Shown: in pieces, positions 7,286 through 55,249 of the stretch
How positions within the stretch are numbered: the first letter of the stretch is position 1
How the letters are laid out: the number at the start of each line of letters is the position of its first letter
Assembly (NCBI GenBank): GCA_016206155.1
Contig: JACQSC010000004.1
Span: 217,910 to 281,909 of the forward strand
Direction of reading: 5' to 3'
DNA: 64,000 nucleotides
DNA from: Candidatus Uhrbacteria bacterium
GTDB lineage: Bacteria; Patescibacteriota; Patescibacteriia; JACQRZ01
Program-made: the position numbers and the translations under genes
The notes under the pieces: generated by a model
What the model was told of the DNA's origin: nothing
Databases searched by the model: none
Seen by the model: the letters and a program-made list of their open reading frames with translations, nothing else

Positions 7286-7335
7286 ATGGTGATTAGTATA
7301 TCACTGTATGGACGAAAGGGGAACGGGAGGGTATA

Positions 7336-11722: not shown

Positions 11723-11756
11723 TATGGAATAGTAATTTCCTAAAAAAATTCATTCT

Positions 11757-12725: not shown

Positions 12726-12858
12726 GAACTACTCTATCGGGTTATTGCCCATCGGGACCGGGTATTTTTCTGCTGAAAAATCCCTTAAACTCATGCCGTC
12801 GCATTCCGTATGTCCCTCTGGACAAAAACCCGATAGAGGGCTTCGTAATTTATGGAAA
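12726..12858. repeat. Structured intergenic element 'type A', copy 1: long closing stem plus internal hairpins, exactly filling the gap between convergent genes
   Basis: About 85% identical over ~100 nt to 26479..26613. The terminal stem ctctatcgggtt/aacccgatagag changes in a compensatory way in copy 2. Confidence 0.6.
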
Positions 12859-15798
12859 TTATAAACCGAGTGGCGCAAGGACAGAGGAATTCGGAAGATA
12901 GAACTGGGTCTGCGGAATAATCTCTTTTGGAATGCGGGAATGAGACCACGAGAGTCGAACGCGCGCATCGCCAGAATATTCTGCATAAACAACGCGGATA
13001 TAATAGAGGCGATCGCGCAAAAGCGTTTTTGTCGCTGTGTATTCTTGGGTTACGTTTGAACCTGTTGATATGAGCGGTGCCGCGGTTGGTGAAATGTGTG
13101 TATCGCCGATATAAAGAGCGGCGTGGTCGTCGGCTTGGAGATGGAACGTGTATGTTCCCTCATACTGGGGTTGGAGAAATCCCTCCCAACGAACAGAGTA
13201 GTTGTCTGTCGGAAGGCGCTCATCGACTTCACGTTCGCCCCATGGAAAATTAACTTTTACATCGGTCCGCTCAAAAACCGGATAAGGGAGCGCAACTTTT
13301 TCGGCAGTGTCAGCGCCCCTGTAATACCGTCCGCGCAAACCCGTTCCGTTACCACGCGGGCGGATCGGTTCAGGCGCAGGGTAGAGATATGCGCGGGGTA
13401 CAATTTCACGTGCGCGCCCACCTCGTTCCCAGAGGAGCTGGATGCCGGTTGGTCCGTCAACATCATAGGTTTCAATGCGAATAGGATATTTACCATGGTC
13501 GAGATATTTTGAAACACGATATTCGGTCGGATATGTCGATACCCGTCGCCATTCGTTCATAAGCATTGCGCTATTTTGATCAACCTCTTGAGATCCTTTG
13601 TCCCCGATCCACAAGTGAATACCGTCATCGACTCGTACGGTAAAGGTATATGTTCCTTTTTCCGGCGCCTCAATCCAACCGGTCCAGCGGACGGAGAAGT
13701 GATCGCGGGGAATTGCGGGGTCGGGCGTACCGTCCCCCCAGAGCAAATTAATTGTTGGATCGATTCGCGTAATGCCAAGCAAGGAAAGGCGGTCATCAAT
13801 AAAGTACTCACCCCAGAGGCCGGTTCCCGTTCCGTTCGCGCTACCAGATCCGCTTGCCCCACCAGTTCCGGCAGATGATATATCCGTCTTTGGAAGCGGG
13901 GTTGGATAGAGATGCTTTTTTGAGATGATTTCTCGGGCGGAACCCTTTCGTTGCCAGAACAGCTGAATGCCCGCTGGGCTGTCGAATTCAAAGTATTCCA
14001 CCCGTATCGGATATCGTTGCCCCGCCTCAAACCTTTTTTCCGCTGTATACTCTTCCATATAGTTCGACACGCGCCGCCATTCGTCCATAAGTTTCTCCTC
14101 GTCAATCCAGAGACGAATACCGTCGTCAACCCGCGCGACGATGGTATACGTTCCGCTCTCCGGCGCCTCAATCCAGCCGGTCCAGCGCGCGGAAAAGTGG
14201 TCTGCGTGCACAGCGGGGTCAGGAGCACGTTCGCGCCAGTCAAAGTTGATTGCTTCAGCCGGGTGTTGTGCCTTTAATGTCTCAAAGTTTTCTCCATCAA
14301 AATACTCGCCGAGTAGTCCTGTCCCTTGAAGCTTCGGCACGAGGGTGGCATACAGCGCCTCGCGCGGGACGATGGTGCGCTTGCCGTCAGATCCAGACCA
14401 CTGCAGGTTTATATTCGCAGTTTGGGTGTATTCTGTATACTCGAGCGCTAAAGAATACCGACGGCCCTGCTCAAGAAGAATCGGAAGCGCATGATTTATT
14501 TTTCCCGCGCGCATGCCCGTGGTATCAAGTACCGCATGCCCATCAATCGTAAGTTTTATACGATCGTCAACCCGGCTTGAGAATTGATAAAAGTCTGTCC
14601 GTTGTGCCTCTATTTCCCCGGTCCACTTCACTGAAAAATGATCGCTGTTGACCGGTCCGGTTTTCGGCGATCCGCGCCCCCAATCAAAGTTGATTGTCGG
14701 ATCAAGACGGGAAAAAGCCTGCTGTTCAAAATGTTCCCCGTTGTAGTACAGCCCCGCAAGGCCAGTTCCTTGCTTTTTTGGCTGTTGCTGTGCGCGGAGA
14801 GGAGCATAGAGCGCAGAGCGGGGAATGAGCTCCTTTTCCGGCGAAACAGCGTTTGACCAGAGGAGGCGCGCGCGGGCAACGCCACTTTCTTGGCGATAGG
14901 TCAGCGTGAAAGGATATAGTTTTCCCGCGACGAGAAACACCGACCCGGTTCGCTGTTCTGCCGGACCCTCGGATTGCGTTGATATCTCGGCTTTTCCATC
15001 TTCCCCTTGAAGTGAAAACGCAACGGGTCCGTCCGCGCTCGTATGAAAGCGGTAAAACGTAGATATGCGCGGCTCGATCTCTCCTGACCACGCAACGTCG
15101 AAGCGAAATTTTTCTTTGTTTTGAAAATCGACAGGAAGATCGAGTGAAACCGTTTGATCGGTGCGCGTGACCCGATAGGTCTCTGAATCAATATATTGCG
15201 TGATTGTTGCAAGGGCTCCGCTTCCTTTTCCTGCTGGAAGAAGTGCGGGAAGCGGCTCGGCGGAAAGATAGCGTGACGGAATAATTTCCCATACGCCGTC
15301 TGGTGTGCGCCACCAAAGCTGAACAAGGCCATTGTTCTGGCTGTGGCGTGATTTTAATCTGAGATGATAGGTGCGCCCCAGCTCAAAAAACGATTTCCTC
15401 GAAGAGGTGAATTCATAGGTGCCGGGCGTGCGCACGACAGCATCAGAGGGGGCGCCCTCGATAAGGAGCTCGTCGTTGACCCACAGCGCCGCCGCGCCAT
15501 CGCTAATAATGGTGAAAGCATACGTTCCGGTTGCGGGAGGATGGAGGTCGCCCCTCCACTCGGCTGTAAAAAAATCACTGCCAACCGGCGGGCGATTGGT
15601 CGCGTCCCATCGAAAGGAAATGCGCTCATCGGTGCGCATGGCGCCGATGTCACTGTTTCGTTCGATGCGCGTGATGGGATCGCCCGTGCTGTCATAATAG
15701 ATGCCGCGCAGTCCCGCAGACTCCTCGGCAAAAACGTCGCTTACAGCGGACATGGCAAGAAACAGCGCCAAAAGAAAGATACGTGCAAGATATTTCAT
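12859..15798 (-). CDS. Secreted protein with about five tandem PA14 domains
   Basis: Signal peptide MKYLARIFLLALFLAMSAVS. Repeated GL[RAL]G.Y[YF].....INF.W....P......F.S.RWTG.I.....Y.F....DDG..L.I motifs. Confidence 0.7.
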   Translation of the reverse strand: MKYLARIFLLALFLAMSAVSDVFAEESAGLRGIYYDSTGDPITRIERNSDIGAMRTDERISFRWDATNRPPVGSDFFTAEWRGDLHPPATGTYAFTIISDGAAALWVNDELLIEGAPSDAVVRTPGTYEFTSSRKSFFELGRTYHLRLKSRHSQNNGLVQLWWRTPDGVWEIIPSRYLSAEPLPALLPAGKGSGALATITQYIDSETYRVTRTDQTVSLDLPVDFQNKEKFRFDVAWSGEIEPRISTFYRFHTSADGPVAFSLQGEDGKAEISTQSEGPAEQRTGSVFLVAGKLYPFTLTYRQESGVARARLLWSNAVSPEKELIPRSALYAPLRAQQQPKKQGTGLAGLYYNGEHFEQQAFSRLDPTINFDWGRGSPKTGPVNSDHFSVKWTGEIEAQRTDFYQFSSRVDDRIKLTIDGHAVLDTTGMRAGKINHALPILLEQGRRYSLALEYTEYTQTANINLQWSGSDGKRTIVPREALYATLVPKLQGTGLLGEYFDGENFETLKAQHPAEAINFDWRERAPDPAVHADHFSARWTGWIEAPESGTYTIVARVDDGIRLWIDEEKLMDEWRRVSNYMEEYTAEKRFEAGQRYPIRVEYFEFDSPAGIQLFWQRKGSAREIISKKHLYPTPLPKTDISSAGTGGASGSGSANGTGTGLWGEYFIDDRLSLLGITRIDPTINLLWGDGTPDPAIPRDHFSVRWTGWIEAPEKGTYTFTVRVDDGIHLWIGDKGSQEVDQNSAMLMNEWRRVSTYPTEYRVSKYLDHGKYPIRIETYDVDGPTGIQLLWERGGRAREIVPRAYLYPAPEPIRPRGNGTGLRGRYYRGADTAEKVALPYPVFERTDVKVNFPWGEREVDERLPTDNYSVRWEGFLQPQYEGTYTFHLQADDHAALYIGDTHISPTAAPLISTGSNVTQEYTATKTLLRDRLYYIRVVYAEYSGDARVRLSWSHSRIPKEIIPQTQFYLPNSSVLAPLGL

Positions 15799-15919
15799 AG
15801 TGTCAACCCTATCACGCCGGCGCCATAAAATCAACTGATCTCGCACGCGCAGACCGCGTGCATTTCATTGACGAAAAAAATATGGTATGCTTGAAGTATA
15901 ATTCTTCACAAAGATCAAT

Positions 15920-16618: not shown

Positions 16619-17439
16619 TGAAGCTTCAGCTTTACCTTACAACTGCCCTCTTGTCCGGCGCGGCATATCTCCTTTCGCTCTACGCAACGTCGGAGCGGGG
16701 CGAGCTTGATTTTTCTGCGCCTGCGACAGTCGTGGGGAGCGGTGGCGTTGATGAGCTTCTTTTGTTCCTTCTCTTTTTTGCCTGCGCAACCGCGTTTATG
16801 ATTGCTCTCTTTCGCATCTATCGGGGGACCGCGCTTTATCGAGTGCTGTTTTCGCTGGTTGCGGTTTTGGGGCTGGTGAAGCTGTTTGAAACAGTTTTTC
16901 CGCTCGAGTTCTCCGCAACGGTTGCGCTTGTCTTTCTTCTTGGGCTCTTTGTTGTTCCGACGGTATGGACGCACGATATCATTGTTATACTTGCGTCAGC
17001 GGGTATCGGATCGATGTTTGCCTTAAACTTTTCTGAATACACCGCGATCGCTCTTCTCTTGATCCTTTCTCTCTATGATGGCATCGCTGTTGTTGTCACG
17101 AAGCATATGATCGCGCTTGCGCATGAAATGATTCGCCATCAGGCAACATTTGCTCTTTTTGTTCCCGAACGATTGCGCGGCTTTGCCGCAGCGATCGGTA
17201 CGATTCGTCCAGGCGCCGGTTTCCTTGTCTTTGGCGGGGGCGATCTTGTTCTTCCGATGATATACTTATCTGTAATTGCCCGGGAGAGTACAACGCTCGC
17301 TGGATATGGCGTTGGCGGAGCTCTTGTTGGACAGTTCCTTAATCATATGTTTCTCACCACGCTACGAAAGCCAATACCGGCGCTCCCTTTAATCGCGCTG
17401 GGTGCGATTGCGGGCGTAGCGCTGGGGCGCTTTATATGA
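16618..17439 (+). CDS. GxGD intramembrane aspartyl protease, presenilin/SPP-like
   Basis: Motifs LYDGIAV (YD), FGGGDLVLP (GxGD) and KPIPALPL (PAL), each within a hydrophobic segment. Confidence 0.5.
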   Translation: MKLQLYLTTALLSGAAYLLSLYATSERGELDFSAPATVVGSGGVDELLLFLLFFACATAFMIALFRIYRGTALYRVLFSLVAVLGLVKLFETVFPLEFSATVALVFLLGLFVVPTVWTHDIIVILASAGIGSMFALNFSEYTAIALLLILSLYDGIAVVVTKHMIALAHEMIRHQATFALFVPERLRGFAAAIGTIRPGAGFLVFGGGDLVLPMIYLSVIARESTTLAGYGVGGALVGQFLNHMFLTTLRKPIPALPLIALGAIAGVALGRFI

Positions 17440-18905
17440 AAACACTGATATTCAAACGGACGCTTCTGCTCGGCGCCATTGTCATTGCACTGTCAACGAT
17501 GGGGCTCTCGTGTACTTTTTTTCAATCGGAAGACGCTGTTAAAGAGGCACAACGTCCCATTACGCTTGAGTTCTGGGGTGTTTTTGATGAAGGATCCTCA
17601 TTTGATCCTCTCATCGCCGCGTATCGAATAGAACATCCAAACGTTACCATCAATTACCGTAAATTTCGCCCCGAGGAATACGAGCAGGAGATTATTGAGG
17701 CGCTTGCCGAGGATCGCGGACCAGATATCCTTGCCATTCATAACACATGGGTAGACAAGTACATCAACAAGCTGGCGCCAATGCCACCGGTGATGAATAT
17801 CAGTTTTGTTGTGACAAAGGGCAAGGTAAAACAGGTGACCGAGGCAGAGGTGCGCCAGATAAAAGGATACACGCCCGCCTCTATTCAAGAGGCATTTGTG
17901 CCGACGGTAGTTGACGATGTGATTCGGTTCATTGACGGGAGTCCGCGCATTCTCGGCCTGCCGTTCTCGGTTGATACGCTCGCGCTTTTTTATAATCAGA
18001 CACTCTTGCGAAACACCGGCGTGATTCTCGCGCCGCCAAAGTATTGGGCGGTTTCGGATGACGATCCTCAGGCGACGCAGAAGCGCGTGTTGTTTCAGGA
18101 TTTTGTATCGCAGGCAGCGAGATTGACCGTCTTTACTGACGAGATGACAAGGGAAATTATTCAATCCGGCGCGGCATTTGGCAGCGCGAATAACATCGCG
18201 CGCGCCAACGACATACTTGCAACCCTTATGCTGCAGAACGGCAGCCAGATGGCTGGTGATAGTACGGTTAACTTCGATTACGACCCTTCCTTCCCGCGCC
18301 CGCTTGCCGTCAATCCGGGTGTTGAGGCGTTGCGCTTCTACACGGATTTTGCCTCTCCGTCTAAACAGATCTATGTCTGGAACGAGACGTTCCCTGAGAG
18401 TTTTGAGGCGTTTGCGCAAGGCAGAACAGTGATGTTTTTTGGCTATTCGTATCATGCGAGCCAGCTGGCGTCGCGCGCGCCCCAGCTTCGGTTGGGGGTG
18501 GCGCCTGTTCCTCAAATTAATCCAAACCGGCCGGCTGTTTCCGCCAACTATTGGGTGAATGGCGTTTCACGGAAATCAAAGAACCAAGAGTATGCGTGGG
18601 ATTTTTTGCGCTTTGCAACACAGCCGGAAGTGCTAAAAGGTTATCTTGCGGCCGCCAAGCGCCCCACACCACTGCGCAGCCTCATTGATGAGCAAAAAAA
18701 AGATCCACAACTCGAACCGTTTGTGTCCCAGCTTTTTTATGCCCGTAACTGGTATCATGGCAAGAACCCCTCCTCTATGGAAAATGCATTTACCGAAATG
18801 ATTAACGGCGCGTTTCAGAGCAAAGCCTCATCGAACGAGGAGCATCGTGCAGAATTGACCCGCCTCATGGACGACGCGCAAAAAATCATCCAAAATGGGT
18901 GGTGA
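17436..18905 (+). CDS. ABC transporter solute-binding lipoprotein (carbohydrate-type)
   Basis: N-terminus LSTMGLSCTFF (lipobox-like), with overall extracellular solute-binding protein features. Confidence 0.6.
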   Translation: MKTLIFKRTLLLGAIVIALSTMGLSCTFFQSEDAVKEAQRPITLEFWGVFDEGSSFDPLIAAYRIEHPNVTINYRKFRPEEYEQEIIEALAEDRGPDILAIHNTWVDKYINKLAPMPPVMNISFVVTKGKVKQVTEAEVRQIKGYTPASIQEAFVPTVVDDVIRFIDGSPRILGLPFSVDTLALFYNQTLLRNTGVILAPPKYWAVSDDDPQATQKRVLFQDFVSQAARLTVFTDEMTREIIQSGAAFGSANNIARANDILATLMLQNGSQMAGDSTVNFDYDPSFPRPLAVNPGVEALRFYTDFASPSKQIYVWNETFPESFEAFAQGRTVMFFGYSYHASQLASRAPQLRLGVAPVPQINPNRPAVSANYWVNGVSRKSKNQEYAWDFLRFATQPEVLKGYLAAAKRPTPLRSLIDEQKKDPQLEPFVSQLFYARNWYHGKNPSSMENAFTEMINGAFQSKASSNEEHRAELTRLMDDAQKIIQNGW

Positions 18906-18953: not shown

Positions 18954-20120
18954 ATGAAATGGATTCACCCCACTGTCATTTCCCTGATGAGCGTTATCGG
19001 AGCTGCATTTTTTCTCTTTCCCGGAGAGGTGTCGGCGCAAGAGGGAATTATTCCCCAGTGTGCCTGGGCAGCAGGAGAGACCTATGGCCTTGGCGCGTTT
19101 ACCCTACTTGCGATAAACGTTCTCAAGTTCATCTGGGGCATTTTAGGCAGTCTTGCCCTCGTGATGTTCGTCTGGGGCGGTTTTCTCTGGCTCACTGCGC
19201 GCGGAGAAGAGAATCAAATTAAGCAGGGATGGGACACGCTCGTCAACGCCGCTATAGGCCTCTTAATAGTGCTTGGCAGCTGGCTGATTATCAATACGAT
19301 TATCCTCTCCCTGACAACGCCGGGCGACTGGAGTAAAGTCGCGCGGGTTTTTTCCAAGGATTGGTCTGAGCTTGTCAGAGGAGATATTTGCGTCAATGTT
19401 GCCGCGAGCGTGAAAAGCTGGGGAATGGGAAAGGCGGCATCCGGCTCGGCGGCAACCGGTGGGGGGGATGGTGTATGTTGTCTGGAGAGTAATTTAGGCG
19501 CAGTATTTAACAAGGGCGTAAATGAAGATCGTTGCAAGCAGCTATTAATCAAACTTGCAAATAACGGTGCTAGCAGACAGCCGACAGCATACTATTGTCC
19601 TTCATCTGTCGATGAATCCGTATGTGGAAACAAAGAGATACGAGGGGGCGCTCGCTATAATCCTGATGACAAGACGGGTGAATATTGGAGAATGAATTGT
19701 TCTTCTGGACAGGTAGTCTACTCGATTATAAATAAAGGTGATGTATGCGCGGATGATAAAAAAATTTGCCGGGAACCTTATGTGTGTCTCCCAACGGGAG
19801 GGGGGAAGAAGTGTGTCGATGAGAACGAACAAGGAAAGTGTGTTTTGGTTGTTTCGGCTACCCTTGGTAGCGAGACGAAAAAAATTGTTGCGACATTCGA
19901 TACTGGCACGAAGAGAGATGATTGCAAAGGAAAAACATATCCAAACACAACGATTACTATGAATTCGCAGAGTTGGACTATAACGGGCGTTGAATATATT
20001 CAATGGTGTGAACAAGACGCATCAGATGGAAGCGTGTGGTCATCCGATTCTTCGCCAGGAATCAACGCAGTTGAAAAAGAATTTGGAAGGTGGGGAAGAA
20101 CGTGCGTTTCTGTAAAGTAG
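18954..20120 (+). CDS. Pilin-like paralog P1: TrbC/VirB2-like two-helix core followed by a 270-aa Cys-rich C-terminal extension
   Basis: Signal peptide, then the core FVWGGFLWLTARGEENQIKQGWDTLVNAAIGLLIVLGSW. Confidence 0.55.
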   Translation: MKWIHPTVISLMSVIGAAFFLFPGEVSAQEGIIPQCAWAAGETYGLGAFTLLAINVLKFIWGILGSLALVMFVWGGFLWLTARGEENQIKQGWDTLVNAAIGLLIVLGSWLIINTIILSLTTPGDWSKVARVFSKDWSELVRGDICVNVAASVKSWGMGKAASGSAATGGGDGVCCLESNLGAVFNKGVNEDRCKQLLIKLANNGASRQPTAYYCPSSVDESVCGNKEIRGGARYNPDDKTGEYWRMNCSSGQVVYSIINKGDVCADDKKICREPYVCLPTGGGKKCVDENEQGKCVLVVSATLGSETKKIVATFDTGTKRDDCKGKTYPNTTITMNSQSWTITGVEYIQWCEQDASDGSVWSSDSSPGINAVEKEFGRWGRTCVSVK

Positions 20121-20125
20121 CATCG

Positions 20126-20933
20126 AGTGATGGGGTCAGTAATGCAGTAATGGGGTCAGTGCAGTAATGGGGTCAGGAGCCATTATTTTTAAGTTATGAT
20201 ATGCTATAATCATGCCACGAACTATACGATCCGATATTGCCGACATGAGCTATCACGTTATTAATCGAGCCAATGCTCGTGTGCAGATTTTTTCTACCCA
20301 GCAAGAATTTCGACAATTCGAAGACGCTCTTTCAGAAGCGCGTGAAAAGACTGGGATGCGTATTTATGCATACGTTATCATGCCAAACCACTGGCATTTA
20401 GTTGTTTCACCATGTGCTGATGGAGATCTTAAACGATTTATGGCGTGCCTTACCATGACGCATACACAACGCTGGCACAGAGACCACAATTCCGTTGGCA
20501 CGGGGCATCTTTATCAGGGGCGATATAAAGCGTTTATTGTTGGTACAGATGACTATTTTATTACAGTTTGTCGTTATGTTGAACAAAATCCACTACGCGC
20601 AAACCTTACACCTCGTGCGGATGAGTGGAGGTGGGGCAGTCTCTGGAGAAGACAGTTTGGGTCAAGAGAAGAAAAAGCAATGCTTTCATCATGGATAACG
20701 GAAGCGCCACGATCATATCTTCAGTGGGTGAACGAGCGCGATGAAGATGATCGCCTTGAACGTATTCGTACATGTGTGAATAGGGGGCGCCCCTTTGGCT
20801 CTCCGACTTGGACAGAAGAAATAGTTAAGCGTTTTAAGTTAGAATCAACCCTTCGTTCTGTCGGGAGGCCATGGGATAAAAATAATGGCTCCTGACCCCA
20901 TTAACCTTTGAACTGACCCCATTAACCTTTGAA
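20126..20933 (+). mobile_element. REP-RAYT unit: inverted REP-like repeats flanking an IS200-like Y1 transposase
   Basis: Three copies of GCAGTAATGGGGTCAGT at 20126..20177 and two copies of CTGACCCCATTAACCTTTGAA at 20892..20933, in opposite orientations. Confidence 0.7.
20212..20895 (+). CDS. REP-associated tyrosine transposase (IS200/IS605-like Y1 TnpA)
   Basis: HuH motif PNHWHLVV and catalytic Tyr context YQGRYK. Confidence 0.8.
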   Translation: MPRTIRSDIADMSYHVINRANARVQIFSTQQEFRQFEDALSEAREKTGMRIYAYVIMPNHWHLVVSPCADGDLKRFMACLTMTHTQRWHRDHNSVGTGHLYQGRYKAFIVGTDDYFITVCRYVEQNPLRANLTPRADEWRWGSLWRRQFGSREEKAMLSSWITEAPRSYLQWVNERDEDDRLERIRTCVNRGRPFGSPTWTEEIVKRFKLESTLRSVGRPWDKNNGS

Positions 20934-21710
20934 ATGAGAAAAATGAGAATTGACACCATTTTACTTTTGCTGAGCGGGATTTTATTTTTCGCGGGAAGTG
21001 GCGACATTGCTTTTGCTGGAAGGGGCGGTAATACACCATGTCCAGACACCTACGCCGTTAGATCACCCTATTTGGCGACACCTGCCGGCTGCAGCAGTTT
21101 ATGTGTGAGCGAAGGGTATGCCTATGGCAGTGCAACTACATGTGACAATGAGACGGCATGCCTTTGTTCTGGCACTGGCACTGGCGGTGGAGGGGCTGGC
21201 GGGTCTGGAGCTAGCGCGGGATCCGGTTCGGGAAGCGGTGGATCTACTGGTGCGGCAAAGTCCGCGTGCCCCGGAGCATTTTTGAGTCCGCCTTCGGACC
21301 CAGTTGCGTGTGGAGTGGCGTGCGGGAAAGCAGATTTTCGTCAGTCGAAGTTTGATAGTGATGGATTTTCAAACGGAGCCGCAAAATGCTGTTGTTACGA
21401 ACGTAGGGGAGCCAGTACACCAAATGATGAAAAAAATAAGGCGGCATTCGGACCCGAAGTCGCCAGTCCCTTTGGGCCTAAGTTTAACGTTCCCGAACTT
21501 ATCGGAGACACACTTCGGCGGTTTTTGGAAATTATCGGCATCATCGCGCTGGTGATTTTTATCTACGGTGGATTTCTGTGGATGATATCGCTTGGGGACG
21601 AGACGCGGGTCAAACGCGGCCGCGAAACCATGATCTGGGCGGGTATGGGGCTCATCGCGATTTTGGGAAGCTATATTGTTATTAAATTTATCCTCGACGC
21701 CGTGCTTTAA
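20934..21710 (+). CDS. Pilin-like paralog P2 (Cys/Gly-rich ectodomain plus conserved C-terminal core)
   Basis: C-terminal core IYGGFLWMISLGDETRVKRGRETMIWAGMGLIAILGSY. Confidence 0.6.
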   Translation: MRKMRIDTILLLLSGILFFAGSGDIAFAGRGGNTPCPDTYAVRSPYLATPAGCSSLCVSEGYAYGSATTCDNETACLCSGTGTGGGGAGGSGASAGSGSGSGGSTGAAKSACPGAFLSPPSDPVACGVACGKADFRQSKFDSDGFSNGAAKCCCYERRGASTPNDEKNKAAFGPEVASPFGPKFNVPELIGDTLRRFLEIIGIIALVIFIYGGFLWMISLGDETRVKRGRETMIWAGMGLIAILGSYIVIKFILDAVL

Positions 21711-21747
21711 CCATTGACACAATTTTCCAAAAGTATATACTATTGGT

Positions 21748-22029
21748 ATGAATACATACGCTGTTGTCAATATAAAAACCGACCCAAAGGTCAAGGATCG
21801 CGCAGCGCGCGTTGCGGAGAAACTCGGGGTGAGCATCAACGCCGTACTCAACAACGAGCTCCGTCGTTTTGCCCTTGAAGAGAGCGTAACGTTTGACACA
21901 CCGTCCGCGCCGAATCTCAGCACGCAAAAAACGCTTACTCGCTCTCGTAAGCAGATTGAGCGGGGCGATTATTATCGTTTTCAGGACAACGGGGCGGCTA
22001 TTGATTTTTTGCGCTGCGAACTTCAATGA
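21748..22029 (+). CDS. dinJ: RelB/DinJ-family antitoxin
   Basis: N-terminus NIKTDPKVKDRAARVAEKLGVSINAVLN. Confidence 0.65.
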   Translation: MNTYAVVNIKTDPKVKDRAARVAEKLGVSINAVLNNELRRFALEESVTFDTPSAPNLSTQKTLTRSRKQIERGDYYRFQDNGAAIDFLRCELQ

Positions 22030-22283
22030 TTATTTCGTATTCAAAAAATTTTATAAAGCAGGCGAAAAAACTTCCCCATCCCATTCGCGAACAACTCACA
22101 GAACGTATCATCCGTTTTAGCACAAACCCCCTTGACCCGCTTCTTCGGAATCATAAACTTAAAGGCGCATGGAGAGAATATGGAAGTATAAATGTTACCG
22201 GCGATTATCGAGCACTCTATTTTTTGCGTGGCGATGAAGTAATTTTTGACCACGTTGGCACTCATGCACAGCTCTATGAATAA
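22026..22283 (+). CDS. yafQ: RelE/YafQ-family mRNA-interferase toxin
   Basis: 85 aa, overlaps dinJ by 4 nt, C-terminal motif GDYRALYFLRGDEVIFDHVGTHAQLY. Confidence 0.6.
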   Translation: MIISYSKNFIKQAKKLPHPIREQLTERIIRFSTNPLDPLLRNHKLKGAWREYGSINVTGDYRALYFLRGDEVIFDHVGTHAQLYE

Positions 22284-22326
22284 AGAAACGAGACGCGTGT
22301 CAAAGGCGGCGCGTTAAATACGATAT

Positions 22327-22875
22327 ATGAAAAGGACTATCTTTTTTGTAGCAGTAATTTTTTTGGGGAGCGGTTTTTCTTTGCCAATACCCGCCAGTGC
22401 CCTTAACGCATGTGGGGGCCAGCCACTTGCCGGGACAGTATCCAATCCTATTAATAGTGAGGGGGAATGCAGAACAAAATGTTCAGGCCTTGGAGGGGGG
22501 TATACATTTAAAGAGTATAGCGCCGGCGGTTTTACCGGACTCGATCCGAGCAAAAAATTTACATGTTGCTGTGGGAGACAGCCAGCCGGAGGCGCAGTCT
22601 GCCCTGCCGGTCTGACGTGCCTTGACGATCCGCTTGGCACTGCGGACATTCCTACACTCATCGGTTTGGTTCTGCGCGGGCTCTTTGCCATCATCGGCGC
22701 CATTGCGCTTATTATTTTCATTTATGGCGGCGCGCTCTGGATGACGGCATTTGGGGAAGAGGCAAAAGTGAAGAGGGGATGGGACACCATGATCTGGGGG
22801 GCTATCGGGTTGGTGGTGATCTTTGGCAGCTACGTCGCGGTTGACTTTATCCTCAAGGCAATCCTTGGAAGCTAG
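22327..22875 (+). CDS. Pilin-like paralog P3
   Basis: Core IYGGALWMTAFGEEAKVKRGWDTMIWGAIGLVVIFGSY. Confidence 0.6.
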   Translation: MKRTIFFVAVIFLGSGFSLPIPASALNACGGQPLAGTVSNPINSEGECRTKCSGLGGGYTFKEYSAGGFTGLDPSKKFTCCCGRQPAGGAVCPAGLTCLDDPLGTADIPTLIGLVLRGLFAIIGAIALIIFIYGGALWMTAFGEEAKVKRGWDTMIWGAIGLVVIFGSYVAVDFILKAILGS

Positions 22876-22929
22876 ACAAGTCACGCCGAAGCTCGCCACC
22901 GCCGAAGGCTATGGCGCAGCGAAGGTGGA

Positions 22930-22959
22930 TTGACACCATTTGGCGTTTTTTTGTATAAT
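22930..22959 (+). promoter_or_regulatory. sigma70-like promoter upstream of P4
   Basis: TTGACA at 22930..22935, an 18-nt spacer, and TATAAT at 22954..22959. Confidence 0.45.
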
Positions 22960-22975
22960 ATAAGAAGCATCTCTG

Positions 22976-23416
22976 TTGATAACTTTTAACCATATAAGAA
23001 TAGGTATGGGTACACAATTTTTGCGACACGTGATCGCAGGAGCGATGTTCTCGTTTCTTGCGTTTGGACTTTTGGGCGCCCCGGCATTTGCCGAGGAGTT
23101 TAATGTGAATAACCCGTTGGATTATATCCGTCCGGGAAGTAACACAGTTGAGGACGCCATTCCGGGGAGATACAAAGACCCCCGCGAGATTGTCAGGGAT
23201 ATTATTAACATTTTTTTGGGGTTCTTGGGGGTTATTGCCGTGATTATCATCCTCATGGCTGGCTTCCAGTGGATGACCGCCGGCGGTGAGGAGGAAAAGG
23301 TTGCCGAGGCGCGCCAGCGTTTGATCCAGGGTGCCATCGGACTGGTACTGATTATTGCCGCGTGGATCATCGCGTACTTCGTTATAGACCAGCTCGTTAA
23401 GGCAATTCAGAGATAA
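22976..23416 (+). CDS. Pilin-like paralog P4
   Basis: Core MAGFQWMTAGGEEEKVAEARQRLIQGAIGLVLIIAAW. Confidence 0.65.
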   Translation: MITFNHIRIGMGTQFLRHVIAGAMFSFLAFGLLGAPAFAEEFNVNNPLDYIRPGSNTVEDAIPGRYKDPREIVRDIINIFLGFLGVIAVIIILMAGFQWMTAGGEEEKVAEARQRLIQGAIGLVLIIAAWIIAYFVIDQLVKAIQR

Positions 23417-23571
23417 TTGAATCTGGCGAATAACATTCACCAGATTCATCCCGCACATGGTTGCGGGATCCAGAAGCACTATCTGTAAAGACATTCATTC
23501 AATAGTAACACACCATAGGTCAGTAAAAAACGTTTCTTGCTAATTTCAATTAATATTAATAATAGAAAAAT

Positions 23572-24015
23572 ATGAGTACACGACTCATGAAACACATTAT
23601 GGCGGGAGCGATGTTCTCGTTCCTTGCATTGGGACTATTGGGCGGACCAATGCTTGCTGGCGCAGCGGATGGTCCGACAATTGACCCAAAGACTTTCAAG
23701 GTAAATGCTCCGGAGCAGTATTTTGGCGCGAATTCCGGAGAAGGATATACGAGTGTTGGCCCCGGCAAGTACAAGGATCCGCGGGAGCTTGCAAAGAACA
23801 TTATCAATATCATTCTTGGCTTTCTCGGTATTGTTGCCGTGATCATCATCCTCATGGCGGGCTTCCAGTGGATGACCGCCGGCGGAGAAGAGGAAAAGGT
23901 TACCGAGGCACGCCAGCGTTTGATTCAGGGCGCCATCGGACTTGTGCTCATTATCGCCGCATGGATTATCGCCTACTTCGTTATTGACCAGCTCGTTAAG
24001 GCAATTCAGACGTAA
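23572..24015 (+). CDS. Pilin-like paralog P5
   Basis: Its C-terminal 70 aa are nearly identical to P4; the N-terminal ectodomain is different. Confidence 0.65.
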   Translation: MSTRLMKHIMAGAMFSFLALGLLGGPMLAGAADGPTIDPKTFKVNAPEQYFGANSGEGYTSVGPGKYKDPRELAKNIINIILGFLGIVAVIIILMAGFQWMTAGGEEEKVTEARQRLIQGAIGLVLIIAAWIIAYFVIDQLVKAIQT

Positions 24016-24021
24016 CTATTC

Positions 24022-24462
24022 GTGAGAATGACCATCCAAGACACCGTCGAAAACGTGTCAAGGGCGGAGCGCTTGAGGATACTGCTTGGCAGGGCGGTGT
24101 TGGGGCTTTTAGGCGCGGCGCTGCTCTTTGCGCCGCTCGTCGTGGCACAAGGAGCCATAACGTCTGCAAATACGGGATTGAACGAAACCGCAAGAAATGC
24201 GGGGTATCAGACGACCAATGTCTCGATCCCCCAGTTTGTCGGAACGGTTATTAATGCCGCACTCGGCATTATCGGTGTTATCTTCTTGGTGCTTATCGTC
24301 TATGGCGGTATGCTCTGGATGCTTTCGGAGGGAGATGAAACGAAGATTGGCAGCGCCCGAGGGCTCATCTTCCACTCGATTATCGGTTTGATTCTTGTTC
24401 TTTCTGCCTACGCGATCACTTCGTTTGTTGTGGGATCCATTATAAAAGGCACGCTGAATTAA
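24022..24462 (+). CDS. Pilin-like paralog P6
   Basis: Core VYGGMLWMLSEGDETKIGSARGLIFHSIIGLILVLSAY. Confidence 0.6.
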   Translation: MRMTIQDTVENVSRAERLRILLGRAVLGLLGAALLFAPLVVAQGAITSANTGLNETARNAGYQTTNVSIPQFVGTVINAALGIIGVIFLVLIVYGGMLWMLSEGDETKIGSARGLIFHSIIGLILVLSAYAITSFVVGSIIKGTLN

Positions 24463-24503
24463 AGTACGACTTGCGCAGGCGGGCACATTTCATCGTCGTG
24501 GGG

Positions 24504-24821
24504 CCACCATTTATGGCAAACCTTAAACAGGAGATAAACGCAAAACTTCAAAACGCCGGAGAAGCGAATGCGGGGTATGCGAGCACAGATATCGCAGCAG
24601 TTATCGGCAACGTCGTTCTCACTCTTTTAACGATTCTTGGCGTTGTCTTTATTGTTCTCATTGTCTTTGCGGGATTTAGGTGGATGCTCGCGCAGGGCGA
24701 GGAGCAAAAAATTACCGAGGCCCGCAATCTCATCATTCATTCAATTATCGGACTTCTGGTCGTATTAGCCGCATATGCCATCAGTTACTTTGTCATCAGC
24801 GCACTCCAAAAAGCCGTCTAG
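24504..24821 (+). CDS. Pilin-like paralog P7 (core only, no obvious signal peptide)
   Basis: Core FAGFRWMLAQGEEQKITEARNLIIHSIIGLLVVLAAY. Start chosen at MANLKQ; the ORF track starts it at 24471. Confidence 0.5.
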   Translation, partial: PPFMANLKQEINAKLQNAGEANAGYASTDIAAVIGNVVLTLLTILGVVFIVLIVFAGFRWMLAQGEEQKITEARNLIIHSIIGLLVVLAAYAISYFVISALQKAV

Positions 24822-25230
24822 ACTAGAAGGGGTTGGTCGTACGCTTGCGCGACTTACTCTTGTTTCAAGCGCGCTTTCCTTCATCGTCGCGCTTCTTGTT
24901 GTAACCACGGAGACCCACGCGCTCACCGCGCCAATACTTGAGAAGCTGAATATCGCGCGCAACGTTGCCTGGGGGCCGACGGCGCAGCAGAGCATCGGCC
25001 TTATCGTCGGAAGCGTTATCCTTACAGCTCTTGGCTTGCTCGGCGTTATATTTGTGGTACTCTTAACCTATGGAGGGTTCCTGTGGCTTACGTCCGCCGG
25101 CGAGGAGGACAAGGCAAAAAAAGCGCGGGATCTCATTGTTAACTCACTGATAGGCATCTTCATCGTGATTGCGGCGTACAGCATCGGCTACTTTGTCCTT
25201 TCGCGATTGAGTGAGGCAGTAGTAACATGA
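24775..25230 (+). CDS. Pilin-like paralog P8
   Basis: Core TYGGFLWLTSAGEEDKAKKARDLIVNSLIGIFIVIAAY. It overlaps the end of P7, and I found no alternative in-frame start. Confidence 0.55.
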   Translation: MPSVTLSSAHSKKPSRLEGVGRTLARLTLVSSALSFIVALLVVTTETHALTAPILEKLNIARNVAWGPTAQQSIGLIVGSVILTALGLLGVIFVVLLTYGGFLWLTSAGEEDKAKKARDLIVNSLIGIFIVIAAYSIGYFVLSRLSEAVVT

Positions 25231-25628
25231 AAAAGTTTTTTCTCCTTTTTGGCATAGCTCTTTTTTTGGCCACGCCGACACTAGCATTCGGTGCAAGCGT
25301 TCTTGAGAATGCCCTGTACGCAGATCCGACCTCCGAAACCAATAAGCTGCTCAATAAATTTGTGCCCGGGGCAGGGGTGATAAAAACACCAGGTGTTATT
25401 GTCTTTGAAGTTCTTCAAATTATTTTGGGATTCCTTGGCATTGTCGGTGTTATCATGATGATTTATGCCGGTTTTCTCTGGCTCACCGCCGGTGGGGAAG
25501 AAGAGAAGGCAAAGCAAGGGCGCACCATTCTCTTTCAGGCAATTATTGGAATTCTTATTGTCTTGGCGTCGTATACTATTACCTATTTTATCATTGCGCA
25601 GCTTACCACCGCGGTTGTAAACCGATAG
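25227..25628 (+). CDS. Pilin-like paralog P9
   Basis: Core IYAGFLWLTAGGEEEKAKQGRTILFQAIIGILIVLASY. Confidence 0.65.
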   Translation: MKKFFLLFGIALFLATPTLAFGASVLENALYADPTSETNKLLNKFVPGAGVIKTPGVIVFEVLQIILGFLGIVGVIMMIYAGFLWLTAGGEEEKAKQGRTILFQAIIGILIVLASYTITYFIIAQLTTAVVNR

Positions 25629-25632
25629 GGCC

Positions 25633-26067
25633 ATGGGGAAAACACCTTTCATTTTTTTTTCACTCCTCCTCGCGTTGTTTTTTATCCTATCGCCGGTATT
25701 TGCGGAAAATCCGCTCCAGGCAGGCACCACGCGCACTACTATTCTTGGGAATTACGTCCACGGGGAAACTACTCAGTTTAATTGGTTTACAAAAGGATTT
25801 GGCGTCGATGATGTTTCCGATGTTGCGTGGCCCAATACCATTGCACGAAGGATAGTTAACATCGTGTTTAGTTTTTTGGGCATTGTTACCGTTATCGTTA
25901 TTATCTATGCCGGCTTCCTCTGGATAACCGCCGGCGGGGAAGAGGAAAAGGCAAAGCAGGGCCGCACGCTCCTATTCCAGGCGTTTATTGGTTTGGTTAT
26001 TATTTTATCAGCCTATCTTGTTTCCTACTTTACCATAGACCAGCTCGTTAAAGCGATTATGAAATGA
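25633..26067 (+). CDS. Pilin-like paralog P10
   Basis: Core IYAGFLWITAGGEEEKAKQGRTLLFQAFIGLVIILSAY. Confidence 0.65.
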   Translation: MGKTPFIFFSLLLALFFILSPVFAENPLQAGTTRTTILGNYVHGETTQFNWFTKGFGVDDVSDVAWPNTIARRIVNIVFSFLGIVTVIVIIYAGFLWITAGGEEEKAKQGRTLLFQAFIGLVIILSAYLVSYFTIDQLVKAIMK

Positions 26068-26474
26068 GGTATATTTTTACATTTTTTTTTGTTGCCATAA
26101 GCATTGCTATGATTGCGAGCTTGCCGACGTTTGCGGCAACCAGCCAATTGAAGGATGCCGCACTTTTTGGCGACAACTCTCAATTCAAAGAGTTTTTGGA
26201 AAAATGGGGCGTAACAAAGGATAAACCTCCCACAGAACCAGGCACAATTGCCCAGCGCATTGTTGCGGTTGTCTTTAGCTTTCTTGGCATTGTTGCCGTT
26301 ATTGTGATGATCTATGCGGGCTTTCTTTGGATGACCGCCGGCGGGGAGGAAGAGAAGGCAAAACAGGGCCGCACGCTCCTGTTTCAGGCGTTTATCGGAT
26401 CACTCATCGTGCTTGCGTCGTATTCAGTCACATATTTTGTACTATATATGCTCACTCTCTCAGTCTCTCCCTAG
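26064..26474 (+). CDS. Pilin-like paralog P11
   Basis: Core IYAGFLWMTAGGEEEKAKQGRTLLFQAFIGSLIVLASY. Confidence 0.65.
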   Translation: MRYIFTFFFVAISIAMIASLPTFAATSQLKDAALFGDNSQFKEFLEKWGVTKDKPPTEPGTIAQRIVAVVFSFLGIVAVIVMIYAGFLWMTAGGEEEKAKQGRTLLFQAFIGSLIVLASYSVTYFVLYMLTLSVSP

Positions 26475-26478
26475 CTTT

Positions 26479-26613
26479 GAATTACGAAACTCCTCTGTAT
26501 CGCGTATTGTCCATAGGGACCGGGTATTTTTCTGCTGAAAAATCCCTTAAACTCGGGCCGTCGCCCTCCGTATGTCCCTCTGGACAACAACCCGATACAG
26601 AGTTTCGTAATTC
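26479..26613. repeat. Structured intergenic element 'type A', copy 2
   Basis: Outer stem gaattacgaaactc/gagtttcgtaattc; inner stem ctctgtatcg/cgatacagag; core highly similar to 12733..12838. Confidence 0.6.
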
Positions 26614-28375
26614 AAGGCTCCCTAGGAATGAAAATAATCATTTCATCGTCGCGATAGGCCTCGCTAAATTCTGGAATTCCCAGAATTTTTTCTTGCAGCC
26701 CTTCATTGAGGTGCGTGATAACGACTGCCGACGGGTTAAATGTTGCGACAAGCTTCTCGGTTTCTGCGCGTTCGGCTCGAGGCGTGCAAGCAAAAAAGAG
26801 TGATCGCGCATCATGCTTTGAGTCTAAAGACGACGAGGCGGCGGTGCACAGCCCTCGATATCCGAACGTTTCTGCAAGATCATTGCCTTGCGAAAACGCG
26901 GTGTACTTCTTTGCTCGCTCAGGATTTTTTTCATACAAGAAGCGGGGATCAAGGCCGGAAACATAGCCATACTCGGGGGCATGATAGTAGAACAGGGGAA
27001 AGTCATCCCATCGATTGTGGACAATGCGTCCGCCCGCCGGAATGGTATCTGCAAGCCAGCGCATGCCGTTAGCATACTGAGAAAAACGATAGCCGCTTTG
27101 AAAATCAGCGGTAACGGACGAGATGCTTGCGCCGATAATTACGGGCGCCGCAAAGAAAAAATAAAGCACGATCATGCCGCGCGCCGTTCGCGGAGAGCGA
27201 AGCGATTCTTTGATATATCCCCAGAGGTGCAGAAAAAGTTCTTTTGAAAAGAGCGGGGCAAGGACAAGGCTTGAGAACAATGTCGCAAGCGGCGCGAAAT
27301 ATTCGCCATAGCGCCGCGATTTAAGCGTGAGCGCAAAAAAGAGAACGGTCATGACGAACATGAACCACTGCGCATAGGTGCGGCGCAAAGGGGGGGTGCG
27401 GAAGACCGCCACAAAGAGCCCGGGAAACAAGAAGGCGCAAAGGGAGAATACAAGCAGCATGAGTGTCGGCCCATGAAGCGGAATGAACGAGACGCCGGCA
27501 GAATACCATTCACTTCCGACCGGAACGTCGGTTAAGATGTTTACAATTGCGATCTTGAATGTTTGGATCCAGTAAAAGAAGACGTTGGTTGGAAAATACG
27601 GATTGATGATAAGACCGGCAAGAGCGCCGGAGAGCGATGCAAGAGGAAGTGCTACGTTTTTTTGTGAGAAAAGACGCGCAACGATATTGCAACTTGCAAC
27701 TTTTAATTTGCAACTTTCAGTCGGAGAGCCCTTAAAGTTTAAAGTAGAAAGTTGAAATTTTTTTGTATCAATTGATATGCGAAAATCAGAGAAGGCGCGC
27801 ACGATCCAGGCGATGGTCGCTGACAACGGGAGTAATGGCCATCCGGCGTAGAGCCAGACATAGAGGAATGAAAGGCCAAAAAGATGAGCCGGGCGATTTT
27901 TTAGGATTGCATAGATGCCTGCAAAAAAAACGATGAGCGAGACAGCGGGGATTTTTGCAAGGTTTATGCGGAAAAGAAACACGCTGTTAAGCGCCAAGAG
28001 CACAAGAAAAAAAAGAGCGCAGGAGCGCGACTGATGGGTGGCGCGGCGCAAGAGCCAGTAAAAGAATGCAAGAAACAGCGAGGCAAAAATAACCGTTGAA
28101 ATCTTGATGCCAATCAAGGGGTTGAAAAACGTAACAAAGGGAATAAGGAGAACGTGGTAGAGAAAATGATGATCAATAAAAACGTCGGACAGCGCTGTGT
28201 CGGGAAGGGCGGAAAAGGAAATAATCGGCCCGCGCACCATGTCTGCCGCGATGCGCGCATGATAAAATGAGTCTGGGTCTGGGAAGAATGGGTGTAGCTG
28301 GAGAAGAGAAAGTAACAGAATGCTGGCAAGAAATACCGGCACATACTCAAATTTTCGCAAAATATAAAGAATCAT
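26612..28375 (-). CDS. ArnT/PMT-like GT-C fold polytopic membrane protein
   Basis: DPDSFYHARIAADM loop motif after TM1 and more than 10 hydrophobic helices. Confidence 0.45.
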   Translation of the reverse strand: MILYILRKFEYVPVFLASILLLSLLQLHPFFPDPDSFYHARIAADMVRGPIISFSALPDTALSDVFIDHHFLYHVLLIPFVTFFNPLIGIKISTVIFASLFLAFFYWLLRRATHQSRSCALFFLVLLALNSVFLFRINLAKIPAVSLIVFFAGIYAILKNRPAHLFGLSFLYVWLYAGWPLLPLSATIAWIVRAFSDFRISIDTKKFQLSTLNFKGSPTESCKLKVASCNIVARLFSQKNVALPLASLSGALAGLIINPYFPTNVFFYWIQTFKIAIVNILTDVPVGSEWYSAGVSFIPLHGPTLMLLVFSLCAFLFPGLFVAVFRTPPLRRTYAQWFMFVMTVLFFALTLKSRRYGEYFAPLATLFSSLVLAPLFSKELFLHLWGYIKESLRSPRTARGMIVLYFFFAAPVIIGASISSVTADFQSGYRFSQYANGMRWLADTIPAGGRIVHNRWDDFPLFYYHAPEYGYVSGLDPRFLYEKNPERAKKYTAFSQGNDLAETFGYRGLCTAASSSLDSKHDARSLFFACTPRAERAETEKLVATFNPSAVVITHLNEGLQEKILGIPEFSEAYRDDEMIIFIPREP

Positions 28376-37976: not shown

Positions 37977-38079
37977 GGATGCAGTGCGTTGCACAGTGTA
38001 CAGTGCAAATTTCTGAAGCGCTATGCTATACTGTGGTAGTGTTTTTAGAGACTCCATAAATCTGAAATCTGAAATCAGT

Positions 38080-55027: not shown

Positions 55028-55249
55028 ATGCCGAAACTCGCAGAGGTTATGCCAAAGGACCTTTTGAAAGCTCTTCTTAAGGGTGGTTTTGTCATTACAA
55101 ATCAATCCGGAAGTCATGTGCGTCTCCATCATTTTGATGGACGAAAGACGACCCTTGCGGTTCACGCAAAACCGCTTCCGAAAGGAACGCTCGCGTCGAT
55201 TCTCCGTCACACCCAGATTTCCAGAGAAGAACTTGAACATTTATTATGA
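55028..55249 (+). CDS. hicA: HicA-family toxin
   Basis: Sequence MPKDLLKALLKGGFVITNQSGSHVRLHHFDGRKTTLAVHAKPLPKGTLASIL. Confidence 0.6.
   Translation: MPKLAEVMPKDLLKALLKGGFVITNQSGSHVRLHHFDGRKTTLAVHAKPLPKGTLASILRHTQISREELEHLL

Follow-up and report, generated by a model that had tools for sequence, protein, structure and literature searches.

A chromosomal array of eleven VirB2-like pilin genes in a Candidatus Uhrbacteria bacterium, probably encoding subunits of a pilus-like structure

Which structure is built from the products of eleven paralogous genes that lie together on one strand of a Candidatus Uhrbacteria chromosome, and do these genes serve surface variation or encode a fixed set of differentiated parts? 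We addressed this question for a stretch of 64,000 nucleotides (nt) of contig JACQSC010000004.1 (hereafter, the window), in which the open reading frames (ORFs) listed between 17.5 and 28 kb include eleven pilin genes on the plus strand, P1 to P11, at positions 18954-26474 (table 1). Elsewhere the window has the character of an ordinary chromosome, with genes for transketolase, G6PD, PGI, RpoB, RpoC, FtsK, RecA, and RuvA. VirB2-like pilins offer a rare molecular handle on how Patescibacteria, which are monoderm, wall-bearing, ultra-small epibionts, attach to and exploit their hosts, and in one tractable species, Ca. Southlakia epibionticum ML1, an essential series of pilin genes is located inside a type IV secretion system (T4SS) cluster (Wang et al. 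2023, Cell, PMC10633639). We propose that the locus is a chromosomal eleven-gene array of pilins of the VirB2/TrbC superfamily, and we consider it likely, with some room for doubt, that the products are subunits of a T4SS-dependent pilus-like structure.

All eleven products share a module of approximately 75 amino acids (aa), in which a hydrophobic helix is followed by the motif (Y/A)(G/A)GF(L/Q)WMTAGGEE.K..(G/A)R and a second hydrophobic helix, and six columns are invariant in the alignment of the eleven cores (G, G, W, G, E, and G). An earlier note on this DNA had described such a helix-loop-helix module in all of the genes, and the ORF translations, the core alignment, and the Pfam search agreed with that description. 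With a whole-protein hidden Markov model (HMM) score of at least 26.6 bits, the curated gathering score, required for membership, the search assigned all eleven proteins to a single curated family, PF18895 (T4SS_pilin, "Type IV secretion system pilin"), at 26.8-48.1 bits, and only P9, P2, and P11 passed narrowly. The "CPR/Firmicutes T4SS pilin" family that the note had named is thus a real one, identical to PF18895 and related to VirB2. An HMM built from the cores recovered P1 to P11 in the window and no further copies. This exceeds chance by far and shows the eleven-gene observation to be real, and on sequence grounds we regard membership of all eleven in the PF18895 family as secure. A family search with the core profile returned 73,393 representative clusters when the threshold was E <= 1e-3 and still 22,526 when it was E <= 1e-10, and the homologues are routinely named "pilin" (NCBI) or "VirB2 component" (JGI) in the databases. 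P1 itself is 100% identical to MBI4253162.1 (HY623_03240), which is annotated as a hypothetical protein of Candidatus Uhrbacteria bacterium with a start 11 codons further downstream. Between this locus tag and HY623_03310, the gene that follows the array, there is space for exactly 14 genes.

Signal peptides and helices were judged heuristically, from hydropathy, by eye, and from an AlphaFold model of P5. By hydropathy, ten of the eleven proteins carry a signal peptide with an A-x-A-type cleavage site and two hydrophobic segments; the proposed layout of a signal peptide plus two helices thus held for these ten but not for P7. The AlphaFold2 model of P5, built with 62 homologues, consisted of a signal-peptide helix, a low-confidence segment at residues 30-69, and a hairpin of two helices at residues 70-102 and 107-146 (pLDDT 84-92). 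Each product would accordingly be a small membrane protein, Sec-type signal peptides being predicted in the same ten, in which helix 1, a tight AGGE-type turn, an acidic-then-basic cytoplasmic loop, and helix 2 form the hairpin; with the loop in the cytoplasm, both termini would face outward. Such a both-ends-outside hairpin fits the array, because the cysteine domains lie N-terminal of the core in P2 and P3 and C-terminal of it in P1, and it also fits the existence of relatives with one signal peptide and six head-to-tail cores. The reversed layout reported for P1 was confirmed, its tail containing 15 of its 16 cysteines, and the P1 orthologues in two related loci of other Uhrbacteria-like genomes, L001 and L002 (L001_1 and L002_1), have 16-22 cysteines each. 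The cysteine totals of P1, P2, and P3 (16, 12, and 8) are even, and the residues are confined to the predicted outside parts. The ectodomains had been called often Cys-rich, which is correct for these three proteins but not for P4 to P11, which have no cysteine at all. A C...C-x3-C...C(C)C framework occurs twice in P2 and once in P3, with weak sequence support (z ~2.5), and the variable segments of P4 and P5 can be partly aligned with each other, so the statement that the regions before the core differ completely was too strong. A regular-expression scan of P1 to P11 for class-III prepilin motifs detected none with a hydrophobic stretch behind it; the single permissive match, in P9, falls at the site of Sec cleavage, and the sequence after it is hydrophilic.

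The relationship of the core to VirB2 was addressed with profiles. Sub-threshold matches to PF04956 (TrbC/VirB2) were observed in six of the eleven proteins, the best in P5 (24.6 bits, E 2.9e-5), and the other five had no match; many orthologues have precomputed matches to both PF18895 and PF04956. As references we used seven annotated VirB2/TrbC proteins of MPF_T plasmids, found by tblastn with a VirB2 probe. In hhalign, 62 relatives of P5 matched these seven across helix 1 and the turn with a probability of 91.8% and an E value of 7.4e-7, residues 68-106 of P5 (KDPRELAKNIINIILGFLG-IVAVIIILMAGFQWMTAGGE) lying opposite residues 54-93 of VirB2 (TDPATMVNNICTFILGPFGQSLAVLGIVAIGISWMFGRAS), which supports a VirB2-like reading of the core at the level of sequence profiles. 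Near-threshold matches were obtained to the NCBIfam model NF045849, for a pilin-like protein of Mycoplasma integrative and conjugative elements (ICEs), with P5 at 39.1 bits (cut-off, 40). When the core was searched against the PDB by sequence and by profile, nothing matched.

The array is old and its order is shared between species. A scan of one genome per species yielded 76 related loci, the best of which belong to Ca. Uhrbacteria, Falkowbacteria, and Magasanikbacteria. In L001 and L002 the gene order is that of the window: a signal-peptide peptidase gene, a solute-binding protein (SBP) gene, the array, and a gene for a 587-aa membrane protein, beyond which L001 has a 256-aa gene and RuvA, and the L002 contig stops inside the 587-aa gene. 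The arrays are collinear: P1, P2, and P3 correspond to genes 1, 2, and 3; the P4/P5 pair corresponds to gene 4 in L001 and to genes 4 and 5 in L002; P6, P7, P8, and P9 correspond to the next four genes; and P10 and P11 both correspond to the last gene (L001_9 and L002_10). Genes 4 and 5 of L002 are 90% identical to each other, which suggests that they duplicated independently. Orthologous cores are 45-80% identical between the window and L001 or L002 and the parts before the core 22-58%, and the flanking SBP, signal-peptide peptidase, membrane protein, and RuvA 42-64%; P4 and its orthologue L001_4 are 54% identical over 150 aa. At each position the orthologues align over nearly their full length, ectodomain included. 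Within the array, adjacent genes are the most alike in their cores (P2/P3 57%, P4/P5 89%, P6/P7/P8 approximately 50%, and P9/P10/P11 60-72%), which indicates serial tandem duplication, and the full-length proteins have a mean pairwise identity of 25.2% and a maximum of 62.9% (P4/P5). From these comparisons the array looks like approximately nine ancestral positions, with P4/P5 and P10/P11 as later lineage-specific duplications. The retention of approximately nine positions across species speaks for differentiated subunits and against a switching locus, and this position-by-position conservation suggests a fixed multi-subunit architecture rather than variation.

Position 4 stands out in this set. 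The promoter upstream of P4 has an equivalent before the position-4 gene in L001 and L002, that is, in three genomes in all, and two stable stem-loops directly follow the P4 stop codon (table 1); these could act as an attenuator or an RNA-stabilizing element after a candidate major pilin gene. Because of the conserved consensus promoter, the hairpins after the gene, and the best-conserved core, the P4-type protein is the best candidate for the abundant subunit, and we infer that it is highly expressed and may form the major component. Thus, we propose that an old collinear set provides one abundant subunit and several decorated minor or adhesin-bearing subunits, whose outward ends would bear the paralogue-specific parts: short N-terminal segments in P4 to P11, disulfide-type cysteine modules in P2 and P3, and the tail of P1. 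By homology with VirB2 and the Southlakia pilin series, a T4SS of monoderm type encoded elsewhere in the genome would draw the subunits out of the membrane and build a pilus-like filament or conduit from them, and the resulting structure may be used in host interaction.

Several observations, however, weigh against this proposal. No gene for VirB4, VirD4, VirB6, or another T4SS component was found in the window (19 kb upstream and 37 kb downstream of the array) in a scan that covered all large ORFs, the unexplained ones among which have no Walker A motif; nor was a T4SS ATPase or virB4 gene found in the related loci examined, within approximately 10 kb of their arrays. Because no T4SS genes are nearby, the case for T4SS-dependent assembly is weakened. 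None of P1 to P11 reached the PF04956 gathering score of 27.9 bits, the hhalign match spans just 39 columns, fold searches with the core returned generic helical hairpins only, including the non-specific ATP synthase subunit c, and P7 lacks a signal peptide. A filament of such proteins has not yet been seen in any Patescibacteria, and a 2025 review, which describes the Southlakia set as six VirB2-like pilins, treats a Patescibacteria pilus as still only a possibility (PMC12857230). Finally, relatives in which the core is joined to 800-1800 aa of immunoglobulin (Ig)-like domains, or in which six cores are fused, fit poorly into a tight VirB2-type filament. In the Falkowbacteria locus L036 (CP066698.1), adjacent genes at 7163-9826 and 9860-15571 encode proteins of 887 and 1903 aa, and approximately 45 similar loci were found. 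Both of these giants have a signal peptide, a PF18895 core at residues ~54-115, and long Big_5/TIG/fn3 regions; they are followed by a He_PIG protein, with no virB4 within 10 kb, and from their sequences they have the P1 layout on a much larger scale. The top family-wide matches (P0144-P0293) contain 2-17 pilin cores per polypeptide, and one of them, P0144 ("polypilin"), has one signal peptide, six cores, and no internal signal peptides; these proteins may be fusions or products of gene-calling read-through. Because giant Ig-domain and multi-core relatives exist, not every member of the family need be an ordinary filament subunit.

The presence of pilT and the absence of virB4 and virD4 in the window had both been recorded correctly, the former being a PilT-like T2SSE ATPase gene at 48807-49835. 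To treat PilT as relevant to the array is to mix two systems, since PilT is part of the type IV pilus system, and type IV pili have no relationship to pilins of the VirB2 type. The FtsK gene at 38023-40299 was considered as a T4SS coupling protein and rejected, as its 4TM, alpha, and gamma domains are those of a chromosomal FtsK.

Much of this evidence would also suit a different function, in which the hairpin serves as a membrane anchor, possibly self-associating, that presents variable or adhesin-like ectodomains at the surface without a T4SS filament, the partners of the array being the SBP and an oligosaccharyltransferase (OST)-like GT-C enzyme and not a VirB4 machine. The missing virB4 genes, the Ig-domain giants and six-core protein, the ring-forming hairpins such as ATP synthase subunit c among the best (non-specific) fold matches, and the still undemonstrated pilus would all be as expected, and the two partners are indeed conserved. 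Of the 25 array-type loci, 19 have an SBP homologue immediately before the array or within it (within it in L061, L073, L075, and L076), and in the window this orphan SBP gene has no adjacent ABC permease or ATPase. Homologues of the 587-aa protein, which number more than 1000 in Patescibacteria, occur in the stretch around the array in 11 of the 25 loci and adjoin it in most of these. The AlphaFold2 model of this protein (pLDDT 91, pTM 0.90) matched the STT3/PglB/AglB oligosaccharyltransferases at the top of a Foldseek search of the PDB (E 1.5e-8 to 1e-7, probability 1.0), and the model thus assigns it a GT-C fold, in which the first external loop contains an acidic motif. In the corresponding FPDPDSFYH loop, P34, D35, S36, Y38, and H39 do not vary among 55 homologues, of which 90% or more also share F31, D33, and F37. 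The protein has no Pfam match and only a weak match to TIGR04154 (18 bits against a cut-off of 450), and sequence and profile searches of the PDB gave none.

We nevertheless hold that surface display without a filament, although possible, is unlikely. The homology of the cores to VirB2 pilins speaks for assembly, a pilin gene lies near virB4 in 1135 of 1948 Patescibacteria assemblies (PMC12102498), and the Southlakia pilins belong to an essential T4SS cluster. Furthermore, the turn and loop, with their W, G, E, and basic residues, are more strongly conserved than a plain anchor would require, and N-x-S/T sequons in the ectodomains of 30 pilins are not enriched (24 observed vs 22.3 expected). 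That the OST-like neighbor implies N-glycosylated pilins was rejected on the same count, while O-linked or other glycosylation is still compatible with it; because the sequons are not enriched, a functional link between the GT-C protein and the pilins is a lead only. If true, such a link to the SBP and GT-C neighbors would point to glycosylated or nutrient-capturing surface structures. A related and rather doubtful idea is that ABY1 genomes carry a self-standing surface module uncoupled from virB4, consisting of the SBP, approximately nine hairpin proteins, and the OST-like GT-C enzyme, which would form a possibly glycosylated, membrane-rooted structure for host contact or nutrient capture. 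The pilin core would then be a general display or oligomerization module, used also in the giant Ig-domain adhesins and the "polypilins."

The locus had further been interpreted as a site of surface diversification by rapid variation, with recent cassette-like exchange between P4 and P5. If so, it would be an antigenic or host-range variation locus, in which recent recombination or gene conversion shuffles ectodomain cassettes between near-identical cores, and this we judge very improbable. Evolution is indeed faster in the ectodomains than in the cores, and ectodomain content changes between relatives, as in the P2 orthologue of a further, more closely related locus, L087, with its extra tail of approximately 300 aa; the P4 and P5 cores are near-identical, but their mature N-terminal segments diverge, differing by a 10-aa indel and, per non-synonymous site, by 37%; and there is an analogy with the VirB2 paralogues of Bartonella and Anaplasma, according to a mention in PMC12102498. 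However, by the Nei-Gojobori method, synonymous divergence (dS) was estimated at 0.96 across the P4/P5 core and at 0.55 in its final 56 codons, with ratios of non-synonymous to synonymous divergence (dN/dS) of 0.03 for these codons and 0.03-0.06 for the pair; the likeness of the two proteins is therefore the result of purifying selection on an old duplication, and recent exchange was not borne out. In all other pairs, dS is near saturation. At the DNA level, the signal-peptide part of P4 and P5 is 80% identical and the last 255 nt are 82% identical; because this is the only pair of array genes that shares a long repeat, recent conversion would have no substrate and has left no trace. Each of the array genes is full length and has its own start, and no silent cassettes were observed. 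The dN/dS values were 0.03-0.23 in the cores and, where estimable, 0.17-0.69 in the pre-core regions, and none exceeded 1. Together with the collinear orthologues in two other Uhrbacteria-like genomes, which match along the ectodomains as well, these results do not support a locus of rapid variation. Finally, the idea that the eleven are unrelated small proteins with two transmembrane segments (holin-like, immunity, or transporter-accessory), pilin-like by composition only, is barely credible: such a composition is prone to spurious HMM matches (weak ones to Cyt_bd_oxida_II, ABC2_membrane_3, and DUF898 were seen) and JGI names of homologues can be arbitrary, for example "amino acid transporter," but all eleven exceed the curated threshold of one very large family, and the non-hydrophobic motif DP...G..G...W.TAGGEE.K aligns with DP...G..G...W of VirB2.

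Table 1. Positions of the pilin genes, the inserted genes, the expression signals, and the conserved neighbors of the array in the window.
Feature	Position	Strand	PF18895 (bits)	Description
Solute-binding protein	17436-18905	+		Orphan extracellular SBP (SBP_bac_8/SBP_bac_1, Pfam); conserved upstream partner of the array
P1	18954-20120	+	39.1	Signal peptide, core at aa 41-122, then 266-aa Cys-rich C-terminal tail
Left flank of transposase gene	20127-20191	+		Three GTAATGGGGTCAG repeats and left arm of 27-nt perfect inverted repeat
Y1 transposase	20212-20895	+		IS200-like tyrosine transposase, RAYT-like; PF01797 67.9 bits; between P1 and P2; not a pilin
Right flank of transposase gene	20877-20933	-		Right arm of inverted repeat and two inverted copies of the GTAATGGGGTCAG repeat (tandem 21-mer)
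P2	20934-21710	+	27.3	Signal peptide, two 6-Cys modules with a Gly/Ser linker between them, C-terminal core
RelB antitoxin and YafQ/ParE-type toxin	21748-22029 and 22026-22283	+		Own promoter at 21714-21741; between P2 and P3
P3	22327-22875	+	36.1	Signal peptide, one 6-Cys module and extra Cys pair, core
Sigma-70-type promoter	22930-22959	+		TTGACA-N18-TATAAT with TG extension, 12/12 consensus; upstream of P4
P4	23006-23416 (ORF opens with TTG at 22976)	+	48.1	Small pilin; TrbC match E 2.5e-4
Two stable stem-loops	23419-23469	+		Directly after P4 stop; minimum free energy -29.5 kcal/mol, z -4.7; no T-tract
P5	23572-24015	+	48.1	Lineage-specific duplicate of P4; core 89% identical to P4
P6	24022-24462	+	33.7	Pilin; orthologue L001_5 70% identical
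P7	24513-24821 (ORF from 24471)	+	39.1	102-aa pilin without signal peptide
P8	24775-25230	+	28.6	Pilin; 47-nt overlap with P7
P9	25227-25628	+	26.8	Pilin
P10	25633-26067	+	38.7	Pilin
P11	26064-26474	+	27.6	Lineage-specific duplicate of P10; core 72% identical to P10
GT-C-fold membrane protein (HY623_03310)	26612-28375	-		Polytopic, 587 aa (AlphaFold2 and Foldseek); conserved downstream neighbor of the array

The start of P4 is likely the ATG listed in table 1. The P7 orthologues L001_6 and L002_7 are 102 aa long, with a start equivalent to M15 of the longer ORF, and P7 therefore probably begins at the ATG at 24513. Spacing from P5 to P11 is tight, from gaps of approximately 50 nt down to overlaps. 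The overlap of P7 and P8 (24775-24821) places the two genes in different frames, and their L001 orthologues overlap by an identical length (L001 7037-7083).

The array had been described as eleven consecutive genes on the same strand; number and strand are correct, but the genes are not strictly consecutive, as a transposase gene separates P1 from P2 and a RelB/toxin pair separates P2 from P3. P3 to P11 form a series of nine uninterrupted genes, and because two non-pilin genes lie between P2 and P3, the array could, strictly counted, fall into two parts of 2 + 9 genes. The flanks of the transposase gene form a RAYT/REP-like arrangement at 20127-20933, in which three direct and two inverted copies of GTAATGGGGTCAG accompany the 27-nt inverted repeat; within the window this motif is found only around the transposase gene. 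We considered the transposase as a sign of recent mobility of the array and rejected this, since the motif occurs only there and an orthologue, 70% identical, occupies the equivalent P1/P2 junction in L087; the transposase is therefore a resident gene and not a recent insertion. The RelB/toxin pair is absent from L001 and L002. The P2 orthologue of L087 (L087 11986-13650) has 554 aa, including an additional Gly/Ser linker and a C-terminal tail rich in beta structure, while P2 of the window ends directly after its core and is followed by the RelB/toxin pair, so the toxin-antitoxin insertion may have truncated P2. A 23-nt piece of the loop-coding DNA of P2 (21598-21620) recurs with 91% identity just past the toxin gene (22288-22310).

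Other genes of the window are recorded here as side observations. The gene for a presenilin-like signal-peptide peptidase (PF06550; 16618-17439, plus strand), which lies upstream of the array at a distance of two genes, is syntenic in L001, L002, and L087. A 995-aa protein (12859-15846, minus strand) with six PA14 and three GLEYA domains, likely a carbohydrate-binding surface adhesin, is syntenic in L087. Further away, three paralogous ORFs of 159, 597, and 598 aa (54247-54726, 55246-57039, and 57679-59475, plus strand), with PIN-domain genes in between, share the N-terminal motif CQNCKQSFIIEPEDFAFYEKM.VPPPTWCPEC, which is treble-clef zinc-finger-like (weak zf_Tbcl match), and have no other family match.

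How does the array compare with known systems? As in the VirB2/TrbC T-pilins of Agrobacterium and the MPF_T plasmids, a signal peptide precedes two hydrophobic helices around a short loop, and the helix-1 motif DP....NI...I.G..G...AV......G..WM is shared in the hhalign alignment; in contrast, the loop of the window proteins is acidic-then-basic (GGEEEK.K.GR), their mature N-termini are extended or domain-bearing, the host is monoderm, no virB genes are adjacent, and the best PF04956 score falls short of the family threshold. With the Mbov_0395 family (NF045849) of ICEs in Mycoplasma, which is a wall-less monoderm, the array shares an 80-aa two-helix core, and all eight of the window pilins scanned matched nearly the full profile, each below the equivalog cut-off; however, the Mycoplasma gene is single-copy in a conjugative element, whereas the window has eleven chromosomal copies and no ICE genes nearby. 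The VirB2 paralogues of Bartonella and Anaplasma phagocytophilum, as mentioned in PMC12102498, are similarly amplified in tandem and have been proposed to widen surface variation or host interaction, but, compared with what is mentioned there, the paralogues of the window are ancient, collinear across species, and under purifying selection, with no sign that exchange is going on. The major and minor pilin sets of type IV pili are an analogy only: they likewise bring together several differentiated, co-conserved subunits, one of them probably abundant, but with another fold and another machinery, to which the PilT of the window belongs, and with a class-III signal that the eleven proteins lack. 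Unlike gene-conversion loci of the pilE/pilS type, the window has no silent cassettes, and its only long repeat is the 82% P4/P5 pair with dS of at least 0.55.

The closest comparison is with the arrays catalogued by Quinonero-Coronel et al. (2025, Microb Genom, PMC12102498), who used PF18895 and PF04956 and reported 441 VirB2 arrays of 2-11 genes in Patescibacteria, with a mean within-array identity of 25% and a maximum of 54%, most abundant in Microgenomatia and Saccharimonadia; Uhrbacteria are placed there in class ABY1. An array was defined in that study as at least two VirB2-family genes in tandem or one non-pilin gene apart in a Patescibacteria genome, and the array of the window qualifies as one in Ca. 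Uhrbacteria. Family, phylum, and mean identity (25.2% vs 25%) agree, and eleven genes is the top of the reported range. The differences are that the P4/P5 pair, at 62.9%, exceeds the reported maximum, that the array is in ABY1, that two non-pilin genes lie between P2 and P3, and that, unlike the Southlakia pilins, it is not beside virB4. Thus, we concluded that the locus is an ordinary example of a catalogued kind that fits the published description almost exactly; it establishes no new principle and provides a clean, large example in ABY1 of an array that stands apart from T4SS genes. The words "solute-binding" and "glycosyl" are absent from the main text of PMC12102498, and the neighbors of the array in the window are an SBP and a GT-C enzyme. 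The points that the present analysis adds to the published description are the collinearity of the array across species, the promoter conserved at position 4, and the array's linkage to an SBP and an OST-like GT-C enzyme.

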